Translations under genes and position numbers: made by a program
Notes under the pieces: model-generated
Databases searched by the model: none
Told to the model about the DNA's origin: nothing
The model's input: only the letters and a program-made list of their open reading frames with translations
Assembly: GCA_001244265.2 (NCBI GenBank)
Contig: CDLV01000010.1
Span: 1,302,001-1,366,000 of the forward strand
Length of the DNA stretch: 64,000 nt
DNA from: Microbotryum violaceum
Lineage: Eukaryota
Direction of reading: 5' to 3'
Shown: positions 2,417 through 19,265 of the stretch, in pieces
Layout of the letters: every line of letters starts with the position of its first letter
Position numbering within the stretch: the stretch's first letter is position 1

Positions 2417-2935
2417 GTCCGCGGCGCACGCAGTACAACTTCCTCTAGGGAGGGGTTAGAGAAGAAGATGAAGATGGGTAGGGACCGATCTTAAGGTGCG
2501 GAGAACTTAAGAGAAGGTGTGCGAAGGAGAGCAGAGGGACGGAAGATTATCTTGAGGTTAGTCGATCTAGTCGCCCGTCGGCTCGGAAACTTGATCGACA
2601 CGTTCCATGCTCCCCTTGCCCCCCGTTCGACACCCCTGGCTGGTGGCCTCGGGACGAAAAATGTTTGCCTCCAACACTTATGCAGATGCATTTTTAGAAA
2701 GTCATGCTGTCCCACGACCTGACGTCTGTTGCGTGATTGGTTCGGCATTGGGCAATTTGGGCATTGGGAACGGCCTATTGCGAGCGAGTTCCCAGGGCCC
2801 GATACGGCAAACGCGCGATGCACGTTTGACCAATCAAAAGCGCCGTGCCAGGCGTTTGCGCGAGGTGGATCACGCTCCTCTTGTGAAGCATACTGCAGTC
2901 ATGTAGCATCAGGGGCAGATGACAACTTGGAAAAA

Positions 2936-3157
2936 TTAAAGCTGAATCCTCTCTGACAGCCACAAAAAAACTGGCATCTTCCACGTCGTTGTAGCACGTT
3001 TGGTAACTATTTCATCGACTCGAGCACTTGAGCGCACGTGCGCTCGTTCTTGCACGTCTCGAGCAATTGTTGGTGCATCAAGAGGAGCGGCGATCGAGAA
3101 GGTCGATTGGAGGACGAGCAAGGTCGCGGCGAGGAGGCCGGAGCGAGCGAGGACCAT
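2936..3157 (-). pseudogene. Short secreted pre-pro-peptide ORF, or the truncated 5' end of a secreted-protein gene
   Basis: AAA-ATG context; hydrophobic signal peptide (MVLARSGLLAATLLVLQSTFSIA-AP); propeptide ending in KR; only ~19 residues follow, through a T7 run, before the stop. Confidence 0.4.
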
Positions 3158-3229
3158 TTTGACTTGGCCAGGATCGTTTAGGGGCAGGCGCGAGATGTCA
3201 CAGTTAGTTTTTTTAGTATCATTATCATT

Positions 3230-3232
<3 letters not shown>

Positions 3233-3274
<42 letters not shown>
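3233..3274. repeat. Poly(T)42 homopolymer in an AT-rich patch, at the left edge of the accessory block
   Basis: Read directly; TTAGATTT occurs at both ends (3228-3235 and 3273-3280). Confidence 0.95.
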
Positions 3275-3277
<3 letters not shown>

Positions 3278-3313
3278 TTTCAGTAACAGTATAATTGTAT
3301 TAATACCTAGAAA

Positions 3314-4560
3314 CCTTCGGAAAAGTCCGAAGGAATGCTTTTACGCACACTGGCGGAAGCCAGTAGTGTAGGACTCATCGACCCTTCGTCACAACCATAC
3401 CTACCAAAAACCCCTTAGGTGGCTTACAAGACACAAGGCGACCCGTGGACTCCTGGATAGACGCTCGAAGCTCCTCGAATTCCGTTTCGGTGATCGGTTC
3501 CAAAGGATCCGACGAGAGTCTGAAGAGTTTCTATTCTGATTAGGCTTGAACTCCTGATTCTATTTCTGATATGCTAAACGGAAGATATCCTTGCTTTAAA
3601 AATTTTGCCTAGGCCTTACAAGTAATTAGCTTGTTCGTATGTTTAGTGCGCCTGGGTGACACTTTACTTCTTGGTCTCTTCTCCGTTCGCTCTCGCAACG
3701 GTTCTGACTGAAGTGTCATTCAGTGCGAGATACAAAGTGTCCCAAATCAATCATACGAGCGAGGCGAGTGCCCCGGAGTAAACTTGAGGGGGCTAAGAAC
3801 TCTCCGAACGATGGAGATGGTATAGGAAGGAAGGAATGAGAAGACATTCTGTCGGGACCGGAGGACGTTCACCCTTCTGCATCTCATTCCTTGCCCGGGA
3901 GTGATTTTTGGAGCCTTTGGATCCCGCCACTTGGAGGAACGAGCTGCAGGGTGTCTCGGATGCGCTGGGACGGAGGACTCGCCGGCACCGAAATTACGGG
4001 CCGCGCGGTGATTCGACGGCTCGGTAGCCGATAAATAAATCGGTGAAAACCCACCCGTTCCCTAGTAGCTACTTGGCACTGCAGTGCAAGTGGGTCCGGG
4101 TGGTTTGCTTGTCCCGGCGAGAGCGTTGCGTTATGACCGAGAGGTGCCTGGTAGTTACACAAGATGCTGACATTTGATGATCCCTTGGGTCGATGACTCG
4201 ATCATCTCGGTGACCTCGCCATGTCCAGTCAGAGGCAGTATGGTTTTTGGGAGACGAGATCGGATTCGCCAAAACGGCTCGTCCTGAAAGGGCGGGACGA
4301 CAAGGCGGTAACCGTGCGTTTAATGTGAATGGTTTGGTGTGACGAGTCGCTCAGTCGAGAGTGCGAAAGGGCGCAAACTGGGATCGGCTCGGCGGGAGGA
4401 GTCGAATGCATCGCGCTCGGTGAGAAAGAAAGATTGATCGATTCGAGCATGATTGGCACTGAAGACGAAAACAAGGTGATGCAACCCAATCTACTCTGCC
4501 CAGTCGACGCTCGAAATGGTTTTCGGGGATAGCGTCGACCTGCTCCGACCGTTGTTTCTG
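3314..4560 (+). ncRNA. Candidate large structured non-coding RNA (~1.25 kb) of unknown family, convergent with the Fanzor gene
   Basis: No convincing ORF. Stems: 3314-3321/3326-3333; 3349-3354/3359-3364 (GGAA loop); 3630-3641/3752-3763; 3658-3665/3734-3741; 3831-3841/3882-3892 (11 bp, perfect); 4176-4182/4200-4206; 4343-4349/4385-4391; 4503-4511/4531-4539. The non-Watson-Crick pairs I found read as G-U on the + strand, and GNRA loops lie on +. Confidence 0.6.
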
Positions 4561-4695
4561 AAGCTGACTGAACGAATTGGATAACAGGCTGTACATATTG
4601 ACCACTTCACCCATCGTTCTTAGCACCGACCCGATCCTCTGCTTTTTGACTGGCACGATGGCAAGCAATCTGTCACTGCCCAGGAGACTCGGCTT

Positions 4696-7600
4696 TCAGG
4701 CTTCTCCAACTCCCCCTTCCCTCGCTTCCCCTTCGCGCTCCTTGTTCCTGCCCTTTCCTCCGGGCTTGCTCCCTTTGGCCTTGCTGCCTTGCTGCCCCTT
4801 CTCGTCCTGCTTGTCCTCGTCCTTCCCGGCCTTGGGGTACCTGAAGGGGTGTTGTTGGAACGCGGCGACTTGTAAGCCCACAGTCGGCATGTTGCGTGCC
4901 GCGACAATGTCGCGGTGGATGGGCGGACGGCATTCTTTCTCGCACAGCATGACCCGCAGATTATTATGCTCGGCCCCGTGTGCTCGGCCATCCTTGAGAA
5001 GTCTGTGCGACCGGCGCGCCGTGACCGGTGCGATGTGACACCAGCAGGACATAGTCCCGTCGTTAGCATAATCCGGCAACGCCTTGGAACTCGTTCACGA
5101 CTGCTAGAATGTCCTGAAGGAACCTACCGGGATCGCTCCCCTGTCACCTCGTTGCGGCAGGTGGGGTCGCTGCAGACCGAGGAGGTATTGTATTCGTCGA
5201 CCGAGACGATCTCCACCACGAATCCTCACTCTTTCAATCTGTTGAACTCTTGAACGAGGTCTCGGCAAAGGACATTCGTCCTATACGTCGCCTTCTGTGT
5301 TCCACGACTCGAGCCTCCCTCGCCAACGAAGACCAGCACCGGACGTTGGCGCGGCGACAGGATGTCCTTTCGTTGGAGGACCTCTGCGGTCTTAATCTTG
5401 CTCAAGTCCGCTTGCTTTAACGTGTCATCGCGGGCCCTCTCTACAACAAGGTTGAAGCACGAGGTTCCATACGACAATCAGTATCCGGCTTGAACTTGTT
5501 CGAGAAGACTCCCTGCGGCGTGAAACGGAGGACGAACCTATCGTCCTCAAACCTGAAACCTCCATCACCTGCTCGACGAAGCGTCTTCTCGAAGCCTTGG
5601 TTAAGAGATTGGTCTTGGCCGCCCAGGCCTGTCGATTCGGCTCGCCGAGAAGGAGACGAGAGGAGGATCCACGAGCGAGCTCGGCGCGAGTGCGTGCGTC
5701 GGCGTCGTCGCGCTCGGTCGTATTCGAGTCAGAGGGGGCTGAAGCAGGACCGTCGAGGGTGGCGGCGGAGGTGGCAGGGCGTTGTCCCTCAAGAAGGGTT
5801 GCTGCGTGGCCGGGAGGTTTGGCGTGACCGAATCGGAGGCTGCCGGCCAGTTCAGCCGAGAGCTTCCGAACGTGGCTCTGCACCTTCCTCAACGGCTTGT
5901 CCAGCGCATCCGCGTAGATGACGACATCGTCTTGAATCTGAACCTCATTTCGGTCAAAGAGGGTAGCCGAAACGGCAATAGGACATTTCGTGCCCAGGTC
6001 GATGCCAATAACGATGGAGTCGTTGGCACCGTCCTGGACGATTTGTCGGAGTGCCGCATCGGTCGTGTAGTGGGTTCCGATGCGATCTGGACCAGCCCAG
6101 TCCTGCTCCGGCGATGGAAGTAAAGGCGAACACGGTTCGTCAGCTGGATGATACTGGATCCATTCCCCCCGGCCCGGAGACGGGTGGCCCCCGCGCCCGC
6201 GCAGCGAATACGCACCCCACCCTTGCCGTGGCTGTAGAGAAGTTTGAGGACCTTCTCGCCAGCATTCTCGACCCTCTCGAGGCGCGGCATACCGCCTCGT
6301 ACTGTCGGTAATGGGCGCAGGGTCGAGGCGGAAACCCACTTGACGAGCTCGTTCGGAGTTGCGAGGAGCGACAACCGTGCGACACAATCGTACGTCGGGT
6401 CGAACGCCACGGTTCCACTACTGGTCACGTGCTGGAATGTATCCGCGATCGACTGCGGGTCACGCGTGGATGCCGGGGCAGGGGTGTCGGCGCAAATTGG
6501 GCGGAGCAGGGGCAACTTGTTGGGGACCGCCTTGGCGACGTTGTAGCCTAGAAGCCGGACCGTTTGTCCATCCGATCGCCATTCTCCGTGGGGCACAAAG
6601 CCATTCGCCCCAAAGCACTCGACGTTGAAAAGAACCTTCGCCACGAGGGCTCCGAGATGATCGAATGGGGTGTCGATCCCACCCGAGTCAGGCCGACGGC
6701 TGGGGGGGGCCGCCTTCTTGGCGCGCTTGAAAGGGGGAGGATCGAGCGTCGTTTCGGGTGAGGGCTCTTCGAGATTGGCCGTGGATGAAGAGGCGGTAGC
6801 GAGAGCCGGTGCCACGTTGGCCGGGGCGGTGGTGGCACGAGGGGTCGCTTCCCCGAGCTGCTGATTGAGGTGACGGCGCAGCACCTCCCAGCGCTCGATC
6901 CATTCTCGCTTTGACGCCCACGAGTTCGTTGAGGTCTCGACAAAGGAGTAAGCGGAGGAGCGAGGGGGCTCGATCTGCGCGAGTAGCACGGTTGCGACGT
7001 GGTCCACGGGGTTGCTCGAGACGTGCGATCGCCAAGGCACCCAAACGCATCGTAGCCATTCGAGCAAGGTCTTGGCCACGTCTTCACCTTTGTAGATGAG
7101 GGTAGAAGTGCGTCGTAGGGTCATGGTAATGAACTCGCCCCCCAAATTCTGTACAAAGAGGTCGGATGGTTGAACAATCGGATCAGTGCAACTGCACTCG
7201 CATTGGAGCGCGTCGGCCCGGTGAGAGCCGGCGGTGCCACCACTCACCAATCCAAGGCCTCGGGTGTGCCCGCTCGCAACCTTGAGCGCGTGGAGGACCG
7301 GGAAGAGACAATGGGGGCGGTGTGATACCCCTCGGATCCAGTCGCAGATCGTCTGCTCGGCAAGACAGGAGCGCTCGTCGGGTGTGAGCATCCGCGGCGA
7401 GTTGTGGCGGATGATTTGCACCGTAACTTGGAACGTAGACCTTGCCACCGACGCTAGATCATAAAGGTTTGCCGCCTTTTGTGTCTGATTGGAGGCCTTG
7501 TCGTGTAGACTCGCGATCTTTGTGGTCAGGTCGCAAAGGAGTCGAACGTCGTGGCCGTCGGGCGAGTCGCGAGTCTGGCTTCGTAGACAGCCTCAACAAC

Positions 7601-8408: not shown

Positions 8409-9269
8409 CTTCGCGGGTGAAATTGATGATGGTGCGACGTGGTGCGAGGCGAAGGCGCTTGACGGGGACCGGCGCGCTCCTGGCTCATCAGTTCGATCTT
8501 CTGATCCCTCAAAATGACTCCGAACCATGGAAGGGCAACACGAGTAATGGGTCGTTGGACTCAGAGTAGTACGAGCAGATGTGTGAAAATATGAGCCTCG
8601 TGTTACAACCATCAAGAACACTGCTTTGCGCATTGTTGCTGCTACAAATCAGGTCGACTTGGTGACCTCGGGTGACCGAGGGGTCTCCTTTTTCGGAAGA
8701 TCGCATCGCAGACGAGCGGCGGCGGCGCGGGCTAGCGTCGTTGGCACGGATGAACCAAGAACTTGACGTCGAGTCGATTGATAAGCGCCAAGCCTGGCCT
8801 CCGGGCGAGTATAAAAGCGCCACCCCGCTCTCACCTCTCTCACTCCTTCCTTCTTCTTCGTTGATGAGTACCTCTCACATGGCTCCTCCACCACTGGGCC
8901 GAAACCGACTAGCGCATCGACGCAGCACCGAGGCGGTAGGTGGTGGAAGTCGGCAGTAGTGTACCATCAGCCACCGTGAGTTCACCCCTCCCACTTGTTG
9001 CAAGTATGTACCACCGTCGCTGACTTGGGCACTGCCCTCCTCTGGTCTTGACTCGGATCGTCACCAGCCTCCGATCTCGCTCTTGATCGAAGAGGGGCCC
9101 ACGGCAGTCCTGGTCGTCTTGCGAGGTAAAAAGTTTGGGAGAAGTTGTTGATTATCATTGTATCGGGTCAGTCCCGCTTGTGGCCACCTCCGAGCATGCA
9201 CCCCCACCGCCACCGCAGCTGCCATCATCGGCCGGACACGACCTCGTACGACAGACTTGGGCTGACCTT

Positions 9270-9590
9270 GCTCTGACCTTCACCTTTGCATGCCCGTTCA
9301 TCTTCATCTACCTTCACATCACACCATCTTCACCTCTATATCGATTCTCGTCTTCACCTTCACCCTTCACCCTTCCCCATCACCATCACATTCGCTTCCC
9401 CCTCGAATCACCTCCACCTTCATCCTTTGCCTTCATCTCTACGTCTGTTTCTCCCCATTGTACCTCCACCTTTGAATTTACCGCATTTCATGCTGCTCGT
9501 TTTTGACCTTGATCTTGAACGCCAACCTCGCCTTCACCGCACCGTCCACCTCTTGCTTACGTCATCCACCTCCACCTTTGCCTCCACCTC
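9270..9590. repeat. Degenerate C/T-rich hexamer low-complexity tract (CACCTT/CATCTT-like)
   Basis: Recurrent caccttcacc, catcttcacc and cacctccacc units; produces spurious HLHL/SSSP ORFs. Confidence 0.7.
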
Positions 9591-9862
9591 GGGTTTTGGC
9601 GTTACAGGGGATTTCCTTGTCCGCCAATCGGCAGTGCAAGACGTCATGACCGGTATCAATGATGAATCAACAACTTTGTCCACAAAAAGTGAGTTTTATG
9701 CACACCAGGTATCACTGCATACTAGTAGTTCCGTCTGCTCGAACGTCAAGCTGCGAGCTGCTGCTAACATGCATGGTCACCCGCCGCCGACAGCTGCTTC
9801 AACTGGCAATGCGGCGGGACAGGTCAGACTCGAGGAGGGGATGATGGAGCGGAAGTGTGTGG

Positions 9863-19103: not shown

Positions 19104-19265
19104 GTTCGCATGTTTTTTTTTTTTTTTTTTTTTCTCTTTTTTCTCACGTGCACGTAATACGTACCAGCCGGCGTTGCACAGCGGCTCCGTCTGGTGTCCT
19201 CTTCTTTGTGTTGTCATTTTTTTGGTAGAACAGAGTCCGAGGAATAACCGTACTGTAAAGTCGAT
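19104..19265 (+). repeat. Short interspersed repeat, copy 2 (T21 tract plus core)
   Basis: Colinear match to 9863-10010, including an exact 20-mer (19224-19243 = 9970-9989). Confidence 0.9.

Follow-up and report, generated by a model that had tools for sequence, protein, structure and literature searches.

The DNA analysed here is a 64-kb window from Microbotryum lychnidis-dioicae, an anther-smut fungus; the exon at 5539-6102 is MVLG_02280 at 100% identity. The stretch 3314-4560 lies in a spacer of 1,539 bp, which runs from the stop of a nuclease gene at 4696 to the ATG of a short ORF at 3157, both on the - strand. For comparison, the mean inter-CDS length stated for this genome in the cited portion of PMC4469406 is 1,181 bp. 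The following features were placed in and around the spacer:

8408 to 4696, - strand: Fanzor/TnpB-like gene, MVLG_02279 plus MVLG_02280, from spliced joints, gene model, identity, motif, Atlas neighbours and tblastn
7149-7247, 6103-6215, 5441-5537 and 5003-5127, - strand: introns of the nuclease gene, from spliced joints in RNA contigs
4476 to 4587, + strand: alternative canonical intron GTGATG..CAG, from one contig each in X17 and X18 (depth 23-29, shorter side of the joint 27 nt)
4420 to 4503, + strand: canonical intron GTGAGA..CAG, from the joint in one RNA contig (X18; depth 5.4, shorter side 43 nt)
4400 to 4695, - strand: putative 3' untranslated tail of the nuclease gene, from the depth pattern in RNA contigs; 4369-4545 is common with a diverged paralogous contig
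3760 to 4400, no strand: unique non-coding part of the spacer, G-rich on +, with low-depth cover in a relative's RNA contigs
3630 to 3763, + strand: the only strong local hairpin, with an outer stem of 12 pairs including two G-U pairs and nested stems inside
3314 to 4560, no strand: the spacer stretch under study, read as composite intergenic DNA and not one RNA gene on the basis of folding, Rfam and comparison with a relative
3275 to 3514, - strand: retroposon-like piece of putative class, apparently 5'-truncated and ending in an A-run, from RNA-contig junctions
3233 to 3274, - strand: 42-nt homopolymer, T on + and A on -, readable as the retroposon-like piece's A-tail or as the expansion of a T(n)AGATTT unit
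3196 to 3744, no strand: AT-richer block (GC 0.39-0.47) with TG..CA ends, apparently repeat-derived, interrupted at about 3208-3514 and with inferred boundaries
2936 to 3157, - strand: 73-codon ORF with a signal-peptide-like start, where organism C has very deep RNA cover

The RNA contigs come from four runs of relatives that were taken as RNA by guess; their spliced joints attest to cDNA, and the contigs are unstranded. Positions that they leave uncovered were given no weight.

The gene on the - strand is Fanzor/TnpB-like and points its 3' end toward the stretch, as originally predicted. Clean CT..AC joints confirm three of its introns, and the fourth is confirmed once shifted by 2 nt. The exons in the window carry GIDLG, DEYNTSSVCS..C, C..C and HRD, to be compared with the published Fanzor/TnpB motif D-X(125,275)-[TS][TS]-X-X-C4 zinc finger-X(5,50)-RD (PMC3627910). 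Family member P0010 fits this motif with a spacing of 241, while the spacing of 297 in P0012 is slightly above the stated range. In Pfam, the single match is to PF07282, and its 15.7 bits (E 0.017) fall below the cut-off of 26.3; P0008 and P0009 have no Pfam match, and PDB sequence searches with the family returned no Fanzor or TnpB match. The AlphaFold model of P0010, built from a 17-row alignment, is poor (mean pLDDT 41). Neighbours in the ESM Atlas, at a score of 0.96, are clusters from giant viruses, green algae and Mucoromycota that carry PF07282, which we take as a lead only.

The family was found in the genus Microbotryum only. In its proteins of about 935-970 aa, no relatives could be detected for the long N-terminal half, and the genes occur in several copies per genome, contain introns and are transcribed and spliced in relatives. 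Two paralogues of the nuclease in M. saponariae are 35-38% identical to it, and at least three near-identical loci are present there. Further loci related to this one lie in M. silenes-dioicae and M. intermedium, and the present genome has another, MVLG_04795. Motif, multiple copies and introns are shared with the Fanzor1-type nucleases of eukaryotic transposons (Bao & Jurka 2013, PMC3627910). In contrast to those, the Microbotryum family was found in one genus only, is invisible to Pfam and PDB sequence searches and has the N-terminal half described above, and transposon ends or a partner transposase were not identified at this gene. A Fanzor/TnpB-like family missed by standard profiles is a small addition; among the paper texts covered, none pairs Microbotryum with Fanzor. 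In this genome the gene is a pseudogene. It is broken by a frameshift near 7568 and by an in-frame TGA at 5226-5228, where the relatives encode Arg.

The stretch itself was originally described as a densely structured RNA of about 1.25 kb, transcribed from the + strand opposite the nuclease gene and free of any credible ORF. The last point holds, and none of the ORF translations tested from 3314-4560 has a Pfam match. A protein gene on the + strand built through the two + strand introns was considered and rejected; its frames stop after roughly 39-60 codons. A scan for promoter and terminator patterns gave matches at chance level only. BLAST of 3150-4700 against the 64-kb window found no further copy except for the T-run, and an exact 24-mer scan of metagenome contigs gave no matches.

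The stems on which the description was based do exist. All ten named stem pairs are present at or near their predicted places, seven of them as perfect Watson-Crick stems and three (3630/3752, 4343/4385 and 4350/4377) as imperfect stems that read as G-T on +. Short inverted repeats reach about two to three times the shuffled expectation in 3314-4560. Perfect inverted repeats of at least 6 nt with loops up to 60 number 25, compared to 14.0 +/- 3.6 in 300 dinucleotide shuffles, one of which reaches 25; for at least 8 nt and loops up to 150 the count is 7 versus 2.3 +/- 1.5, with two of 300 shuffles having as many, and for at least 9 nt it is 2 versus 0.55, a number matched by 33 of 300. The region's count is also matched by two of 51 window segments of the same size for 8-mers and by five for 7-mers. 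The excess over chance is modest. The stems exist as short inverted repeats, a type of sequence usual in repeat-derived and non-coding DNA.

Two further arguments for a + strand RNA hold in part. GNRA loops had been placed on + at 3355, 4045, 4119 and 4139; those at 3355, 4045 and 4139 are closed by at least three Watson-Crick pairs, the one at 4119 is not. With 3-pair stems we count four GNRA loops on + (0.86 +/- 0.96 expected, a count reached by 7 of 500 shuffles) and none on -, while with 4-pair stems there is one where 0.27 are expected, and 118 of 500 shuffles have as many. The imperfect pairs were said to read as G-U on + and as A-C on -. This asymmetry is seen in the near-stems, with G-T:A-C ratios of 20:14, 12:3 and 6:0 at lengths 9, 10 and 11, counts in which windows overlap and few stems dominate, but it is partly a product of base composition. 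The base fractions are G 0.288, T 0.241, A 0.234 and C 0.237, so that a ratio of 1.25 is expected.

Folding statistics do not describe one structured RNA. The whole-length fold of 3314-4560 has a z-score of -1.90 on + and -1.67 on - (30 shuffles each); five control segments of 1247 nt range from +0.17 to +3.24 on the + strand, and the stretch has the lowest whole-length value among the six segments tested, equally so on both strands. Locally, the 22 windows of 150 nt inside the stretch have mean z-scores of -0.41 (+) and +0.04 (-), and the 132 windows outside have -0.10 (+) and -0.34 (-), with no difference between inside and outside by Mann-Whitney test (p = 0.125 on + and 0.84 on -). Windows with a z-score of -3 or lower are found in coding DNA too, at 1051, 5901 and 5951. 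The two halves of the stretch fold best on opposite strands. On +, a better fold than in shuffles is confined to the left 480 nt (3290-3770), with z = -2.67 (0 of 100 shuffles as good) on + and +0.05 on -. This half contains the hairpin at 3630-3763, and 3600-3800 gives -3.05 on + (0 of 200 shuffles as good) versus -0.85 on -. For the right 800 nt (3760-4560) the + fold is at the level of shuffles (z = -0.63; 26 of 90 as good), and the - fold reaches -2.26 (3 of 90 as good), or -2.39 in another run (1 of 20). With weak whole-length values on both strands, local values like those of the flanks and halves that disagree in strand, the description as densely structured does not stand.

Comparison with a close relative gives a similar picture. 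Over 3474-4145, the relative differs from the window at 25 positions and by one gap. Placed on the + strand MFE structure, the 25 listed substitutions from this one relative fall into 11 at unpaired positions, 3 that keep a pair, 11 that break a pair and none that is compensated; paired positions take 56% of the listed substitutions and make up 65% of all positions. All four listed substitutions inside named stems of at least 8 pairs break them on + (3636, 3735, 3834 and 3887), among them 3636 C>A, which opens a pair of the 3630-3763 hairpin. Among those listed, the substitutions appear neither to spare nor to compensate the stems; compensating changes may be present outside this list. In addition, an indel of at least 265 nt sets the relative apart at 4144/4145, within the stretch, and contigs of organism C diverge at this point.

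These data bear directly on the proposal of a single giant + strand RNA of about 1.25 kb that serves the Fanzor-like nuclease as scaffold, ribozyme or guide partner. It can draw on the existence of the stems, the whole-length z-score on +, the nominal GNRA excess on + and the wobble-type near-stems, which favour the + strand. However, the + signal comes from the repeat-derived left 480 nt alone, pairs are broken by 11 of the 14 listed substitutions at paired positions with none compensated, the indel falls inside the stretch, and the partner gene is a pseudogene. An RNA of this kind would also lie on the strand opposite to the nuclease and be about ten times as long as any omega-RNA described in the cited portions of PMC11423790 and PMC10432273. 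The proposal is largely refuted, and we regard it as highly improbable; the removal of this false lead is our main result. The other original suggestion, an unannotated host RNA gene merely beside the nuclease (telomerase RNA, RNase P or MRP RNA, spliceosomal or nucleolar RNA), fares no better. The size of about 1.25 kb falls within the range of fungal telomerase RNAs, and the lack of an ORF would fit a non-coding gene. But Rfam, group I/II intron families included, has no match at the gathering score in the whole 64 kb, and in 2900-5000, with E up to 10 allowed, gives only three matches of E 1.6-8.1, far below gathering and at noise level; the tRNA scan of 2800-4800 found no genes. The telomere repeat of the genome is TTAGGG (cited portion of PMC4469406). 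A telomerase template would have to span 1.5 or more of these repeats; we found no TTAGGG-repeat 9-mer in any of the six permutations, with up to one mismatch, on either strand of 3150-4750. Together with a folding that is weak and inconsistent between strands, this makes a host RNA gene highly improbable.

We conclude, with a probability of about 0.7, that 3314-4560 is a spacer between two - strand genes, the decayed Fanzor/TnpB-like gene and the short ORF starting at 3157, that it holds no single RNA gene and that it consists of three unrelated parts. The part next to the nuclease, 4400-4696, would be the 3' untranslated tail of that gene and a member of a duplicated unit. The middle part, 3760-4400, covered at a depth of about 9-12 in the relative's RNA contigs, is probably unique non-coding DNA under free drift, as argued by the pair-breaking substitutions and the large indel in the close relative. 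The left part, 3196-3750, would be AT-richer repeat debris that also supplies the sequence upstream of the short ORF. Taken as a whole, the stretch most likely has no function; one gene probably draws its terminator and 3' UTR from it, and the next gene its promoter or leader.

The arrangement at the nuclease 3' end nevertheless invites comparison with omega-RNAs, as in SpuFz1, where hairpin-bearing non-coding DNA likewise follows directly past the 3' end of a Fanzor/TnpB-like gene. According to the cited portions of the sources, Fanzor1 omega-RNAs are 75-150 nt long (PMC11423790), and a Fanzor omega-RNA of 88-90 nt lies downstream of the gene on the nuclease strand (PMC10432273). The original remark that known omega-RNAs are much shorter and share the strand of the nuclease agrees with both. 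Described omega-RNAs also span the right-end repeat of the element. The proposed RNA differs in being on + with the gene on -, in its length of 1,247 nt, in folding incoherently and in adjoining a broken gene. An omega-RNA would be expected only at 4400-4696 on the - strand, and none emerged there. An extended version of this idea takes the right part, about 3760-4700 on -, as a long structured tail of the nuclease transcript that contains or yields an omega-RNA unusually long for Fanzor. Strand and position directly downstream agree with known omega-RNAs (PMC10432273, cited portion), 3760-4560 folds better than most shuffles on -, 4369-4545 recurs in the paralogous contig, and RNA-contig depth is 78-87 at 4514-4861 compared to 31-33 at 4862-5035, although contig depth is a poor gauge of RNA level. 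Against it, the stop-proximal 4400-4720 folds on - no better than shuffles (z = -0.11; 43 of 100 as good), the Fanzor1 length range is exceeded, the relative has its indel at 4144/4145 and the gene is broken in this genome. We consider such a tail unlikely.

The original expectation of a + strand transcript survives in a restricted form: the relative's two canonical + strand introns at the gene-proximal end of the stretch indicate that some + strand RNA is probably made there. The two GT..AG joints hint that in the relative a + strand transcript, spliced and antisense, covers the 3' end of the nuclease. One could extend this to a spliced non-coding transcript that starts in the spacer, runs antisense into the nuclease 3' end and acts as a regulator, for example through dsRNA and RNAi silencing. 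The two overlapping joints agree with this, as do low-depth contigs over 3474-4398; the other two joints flagged 'between: not known', in the nuclease gene, proved to be real introns, and the genome keeps an expressed RdRP, two Argonautes and Dicer (cited portion of PMC4469406). However, the joints come from assembled, unstranded contigs of the relative, have shorter sides of 27-43 nt and lie in runs labelled RNA by guess, the + fold of the right part is no better than in shuffles, and a transcript does not imply function. An antisense regulator is therefore quite unlikely in our view. Natural antisense or convergent transcription over transposon genes in RNAi fungi is the nearest known parallel. 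It shares the opposite-strand spliced transcript apparently overlapping a mobile-element gene at its 3' end, where the genome has RdRP, Argonaute and Dicer, and differs from the present case, which is seen solely as two splice joints in a relative's contigs. The hint of antisense transcription is a second small addition. Combining both ideas, one may picture a two-RNA locus at the 3' end of a gene for a Microbotryum-specific Fanzor-like nuclease of about 950 aa, with a long - strand omega-RNA (about 3760-4700, z about -2.3) and a spliced + strand antisense RNA that pairs with it and controls it, directly or via RNAi. If true, an RNA-guided nuclease would here be under regulation of a eukaryotic style; we judge this very unlikely.

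Returning to the composite spacer, its left part is best described as repeat debris, a class suggested by contig depths and loose contig ends. The sequence of 3196-3744 is abundant and variable in the RNA contigs of two relatives, with several variant flanks, summed depths of about 200-1,900 (organism C) and at most 212 (organism D), and loose contig ends at 3385, 3429, 3514-3521, 3588 and 3744. Contigs that match up to 3514-3517 continue with other sequence, while those that begin at 3515 or 3521 are preceded by the window's 3196-3207 sequence. This pattern suggests that 3275-3514 may be a retroposon-like piece on -, with an A-tail and a truncated 5' end, that went into another dispersed repeat. 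Likeness to 5'-truncated A-tailed non-LTR retroposons (a LINE tail or SINE-like element) lies in the terminal A-run on -, in the perfect hairpins at 3314-3333 and 3349-3364 within about 100 nt, in the abrupt boundary at 3514-3517 with other copies running on and in the high RNA abundance in relatives. Unlike such elements, the piece has no reverse-transcriptase remnant and no tRNA, 5S or 7SL head, with the tRNA head looked for by the scan of 2800-4800, and the T-run may instead have come from expansion of a simple repeat; the window contains no second copy of the piece. If the outer block is read as a solo LTR, its flanks CGAGA and AATCA do not match as a target-site duplication. For the retroposon-like piece there is an imperfect candidate only, so that neither proposed repeat has a clean one.

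A retroposon-like repeat that may be unclassified, in a genome from which SINEs are reported to be absent, is a further small addition; like the antisense hint and the nuclease family, it is a modest one to known kinds of elements. The cited portion of PMC4469406 gives the unclassified share of TE space in M. lychnidis-dioicae as 41.6% and places TEs close to genes for small secreted proteins. The 73-codon ORF beyond the repeat debris had no homologue among the proteins of 40-128 aa searched, and RNA-contig depth over 2948-3121 in organism C reaches 1,614 and 6,622.

The 1,247 nt at 3314-4560 are an ordinary composite spacer. A 73-codon open reading frame on the minus strand (2936-3157) starts at 3157, so the stretch is contained in the 1,539 bp that separate two coding sequences of the same orientation; for the source genome, the published mean of this distance is 1,181 bp (PMC4469406). 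The frame has a signal-peptide-like start, and in organism C, a close relative of the source, the summed depth of RNA over it is very high (1,614 and 6,622); no homologue is found among proteins of 40-128 aa. It may represent an unannotated gene for a small secreted protein; transposable elements are reported near such genes in the source genome (PMC4469406). About 75 nt upstream of its start lies a 42-nt T homopolymer (3233-3274), and a similar T-run is found at 19110-19142.

The original prediction placed a densely structured plus-strand RNA in this spacer. All ten of its stem pairs are present: seven are perfect Watson–Crick inverted repeats, identical on both strands, and three are imperfect with G-T on the plus strand. 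We observe a modest surplus of inverted repeats over chance. Perfect repeats of at least 6 nt with loops up to 60 nt number 25 versus 14.0 ± 3.6 in 300 dinucleotide shuffles, one of which reaches 25, and those of at least 8 nt with loops up to 150 nt number 7 versus 2.3 ± 1.5 (2/300 reach 7). Among 51 window segments of the same size, 2 match the count for 8-mers and 5 that for 7-mers. Three of the four GNRA loops named on the plus strand have closing stems of three pairs or more, but the fourth does not. On this strand, GNRA loops with three-pair stems number 4 versus 0.86 ± 0.96 in shuffles (7/500 reach 4), and with four-pair stems 1 versus 0.27. The preference for G-U over A-C, taken as a sign of the plus strand, is present in near-stems (G-T:A-C of 20:14, 12:3 and 6:0 at lengths 9, 10 and 11, in overlapping windows dominated by few stems), but it is weakened because base composition alone predicts a ratio of 1.25. 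The absence of a credible reading frame is borne out, as tested translations have no Pfam match and the longer minus-strand open frames agree with low T content.

Folding energies say less for the stretch than the stem counts. Its z against shuffles (negative being more stable) is -1.90 on the plus and -1.67 on the minus strand with 30 shuffles per strand, compared to +0.17, +0.19, +3.24, +1.44 and +1.15 for five control segments of equal length. It has the lowest z of the six, equally on both strands, which is the pattern expected from palindromes at the DNA level. Windows of 150 nt average -0.41 (plus) and +0.04 (minus) inside (n=22) versus -0.10 and -0.34 outside (n=132; Mann-Whitney p = 0.125 and 0.84), and values of -3 or below are also found in coding DNA at 1051, 5901 and 5951. 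The better-folding strand differs between the halves. The left half (3290-3770) reaches -2.67 on plus (0/100 shuffles as stable) and +0.05 on minus, while the right half (3760-4560) has -0.63 on plus (26/90) and -2.26 on minus (3/90), in agreement with 20-shuffle runs. The sole strong local element is a hairpin at 3630-3763, with z of -3.05 on plus (0/200) and -0.85 on minus for 3600-3800. With a weak whole-length z, local values like those of the surroundings and halves that disagree on strand, the shuffle comparison does not favor the proposed RNA. The stems are real and short palindromes modestly in excess, but a single structured unit is unsupported by folding.

No known RNA family accounts for the stretch. 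At gathering thresholds Rfam gives no match in the whole window, and between 2900 and 5000 only three matches with E of 1.6-8.1; no host-RNA family is matched, including group I/II introns, RNase P/MRP and telomerase. A scan covering the stretch returns no tRNA genes. Telomerase RNA was also rejected as a candidate on its template: 9-mers from all permutations of the telomere repeat, reported as TTAGGG in PMC4469406, are absent from both strands of 3150-4750 even when one mismatch is allowed.

Comparison with organism C separates the spacer into parts of different origin. The middle part (3760-4400) is unique, with a depth of about 9-12 in contigs assembled from X17 and X18, two presumed RNA sequencing runs. 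Over 3474-4145 we find 25 differences and one gap, and the nuclease exons differ at 11/322, 16/313, 25/567 and 55/865 nt; divergence of the middle part is thus about equal to that of the exons. The contigs lose their match at 4144/4145 from both sides and extend beyond this point by at least 265 nt in one case and at least 104 nt in the other, which indicates a large indel within the supposed RNA. The stretch carries at least 25 substitutions in organism C. Of those listed, 11 are unpaired in the plus-strand MFE fold, 3 keep a pair and 11 break one, and no compensated pair occurs among them in this one lineage; 56% fall in paired positions, compared to 65% of all positions being paired. All four listed changes within those stems of the original prediction that have at least 8 pairs (3636, 3735, 3834, 3887) break a pair on plus. 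This is evidence, though with one lineage compared not proof, that the structure would be without detectable constraint. A giant structured partner RNA of the Fanzor-like gene is therefore unsupported, given the strand-discordant folds, the pair-breaking substitutions, the indel and the lack of an Rfam match.

The left part (3196-3750) appears repeat-derived. Its GC content is 0.39-0.47 compared to about 0.56 in the surroundings, and summed contig depth is about 200-1,900 for organism C and at most 212 for organism D, a second relative. Contigs of the relatives carry several sequence variants with loose ends at 3385, 3429, 3514-3521, 3588 and 3744. Those matching as far as 3514-3517 continue into different sequence, and where a match begins at 3515 or 3521, the contig has the sequence of 3196-3207 ahead of it. 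We read this part as one repeat with putative TG..CA ends at 3196 and 3744, broken up by a second piece. On the minus strand this piece would end in the 42-nt A-run at 3233-3274 with its 5' side cut off, as in truncated copies of non-LTR retroposons; alternatively, the T-run could reflect expansion of a T(n)AGATTT unit. The left part holds no reverse-transcriptase remnant, and no clean target duplication was found for its repeats. The published annotation of the source genome contains 0 SINEs; its LINE copies number 392 and its unclassified copies 1,942 (PMC4469406). The A-run is no more than about 100 nt away from the first two predicted hairpins.

The right part (4400-4696) forms the nuclease gene's 3' tail. 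It belongs to the duplicated unit, since 4369-4545 is also carried by a paralogous contig of greater divergence. In organism C, contig joints show the gene to be transcribed and spliced, with these introns:

5003-5127, minus strand, intron, spliced joints in X17 and X18 contigs
5441-5537, minus strand, intron, spliced joints in X17 and X18 contigs
7149-7247, minus strand, intron, spliced joints in X17 and X18 contigs
6103-6215, minus strand, intron, fourth joint, canonical after a 2-nt shift

The spliced frame runs from about 7592 to a stop at 4696-4698 with one in-frame TGA at 5226-5228, where relatives' proteins have Arg. Those proteins begin further upstream, at the equivalent of 8408; the frame changes from about 7568 upstream, where organism C contigs have one extra base. 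The window is of eukaryotic origin; its exon at 5539-6102 (minus) encodes a sequence that shares 100% identity with MVLG_02280 from Microbotryum lychnidis-dioicae p1A1 Lamole. Frameshift and TGA explain why the public annotation divides the gene into MVLG_02279 and MVLG_02280, omitting the exon part with the TGA, and from its sequence the gene is a pseudogene in the source genome. The strongest local folds of the 7.6 kb scanned on both strands lie at 5901-6100 (z -3.2 to -4.3), in the exon with the first catalytic motif and with short inverted repeats such as 5994-6008/6023-6037.

We call the gene Fanzor-like, and the predicted Fanzor neighbor holds in this sense, from the motif D..[TS][TS]xxC4..RD in full-length family members (spacing 241 in P0010 and 297 in P0012), as defined in PMC3627910. 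Pfam gives a single sub-threshold TNB-domain match (E 0.017), PDB sequence searches with the family return no relevant match, and the AlphaFold model of a member is too poor for use (pLDDT 41). As a lead only, when the C-terminal half of P0010 is looked up with a language model, its neighbors at 0.96 are PF07282-bearing clusters from giant viruses, green algae and Mucoromycota. The family comprises 19 matches at E ≤0.001 among 1.84 billion representatives, with proteins of about 935-970 aa, and all 13 members seen with source names are from Microbotryum species. One species carries diverged paralogues (35-38% identical), and the source genome a second fragment, MVLG_04795. The literature search found no paper naming both Microbotryum and Fanzor; supplementary lists of Fanzor surveys lie outside its scope.

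Transcription of the plus strand, also part of the original prediction, is hinted at by two joints in organism C contigs:

4420-4503, plus strand, intron, joint GTGAGA..CAG, X18
4476-4587, plus strand, intron, joint GTGATG..CAG, X17 and X18

These overlap and would be alternative introns. Both have canonical GT..AG ends, and two other joints with the same flag, 'between: not known', are real nuclease introns; organism C therefore likely makes a spliced plus-strand transcript antisense to the 3' end of the nuclease gene. Frames from these introns end after roughly 39-60 codons, read by eye, so the transcript is probably non-coding. According to PMC4469406 the source genome has expressed RNAi machinery; the idea that the sense/antisense pair feeds RNAi is speculative. 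Read on the strand of the nuclease, the right 800 nt are somewhat more stable than expected by chance (z about -2.3), and the 320 nt closest to the stop codon, with z of -0.11, are not; folding downstream of the stop identifies no omega-RNA there.

Elsewhere in the window, minus-strand open frames at 1-2400 may represent a gene with introns for an inorganic phosphate transporter of major facilitator type. The region 9150-9600, downstream of a plus-strand ATG at about 8880, is C-rich and of low complexity; its GC skew falls as low as -0.63, and CACC/CTTCACC-like units are numerous.
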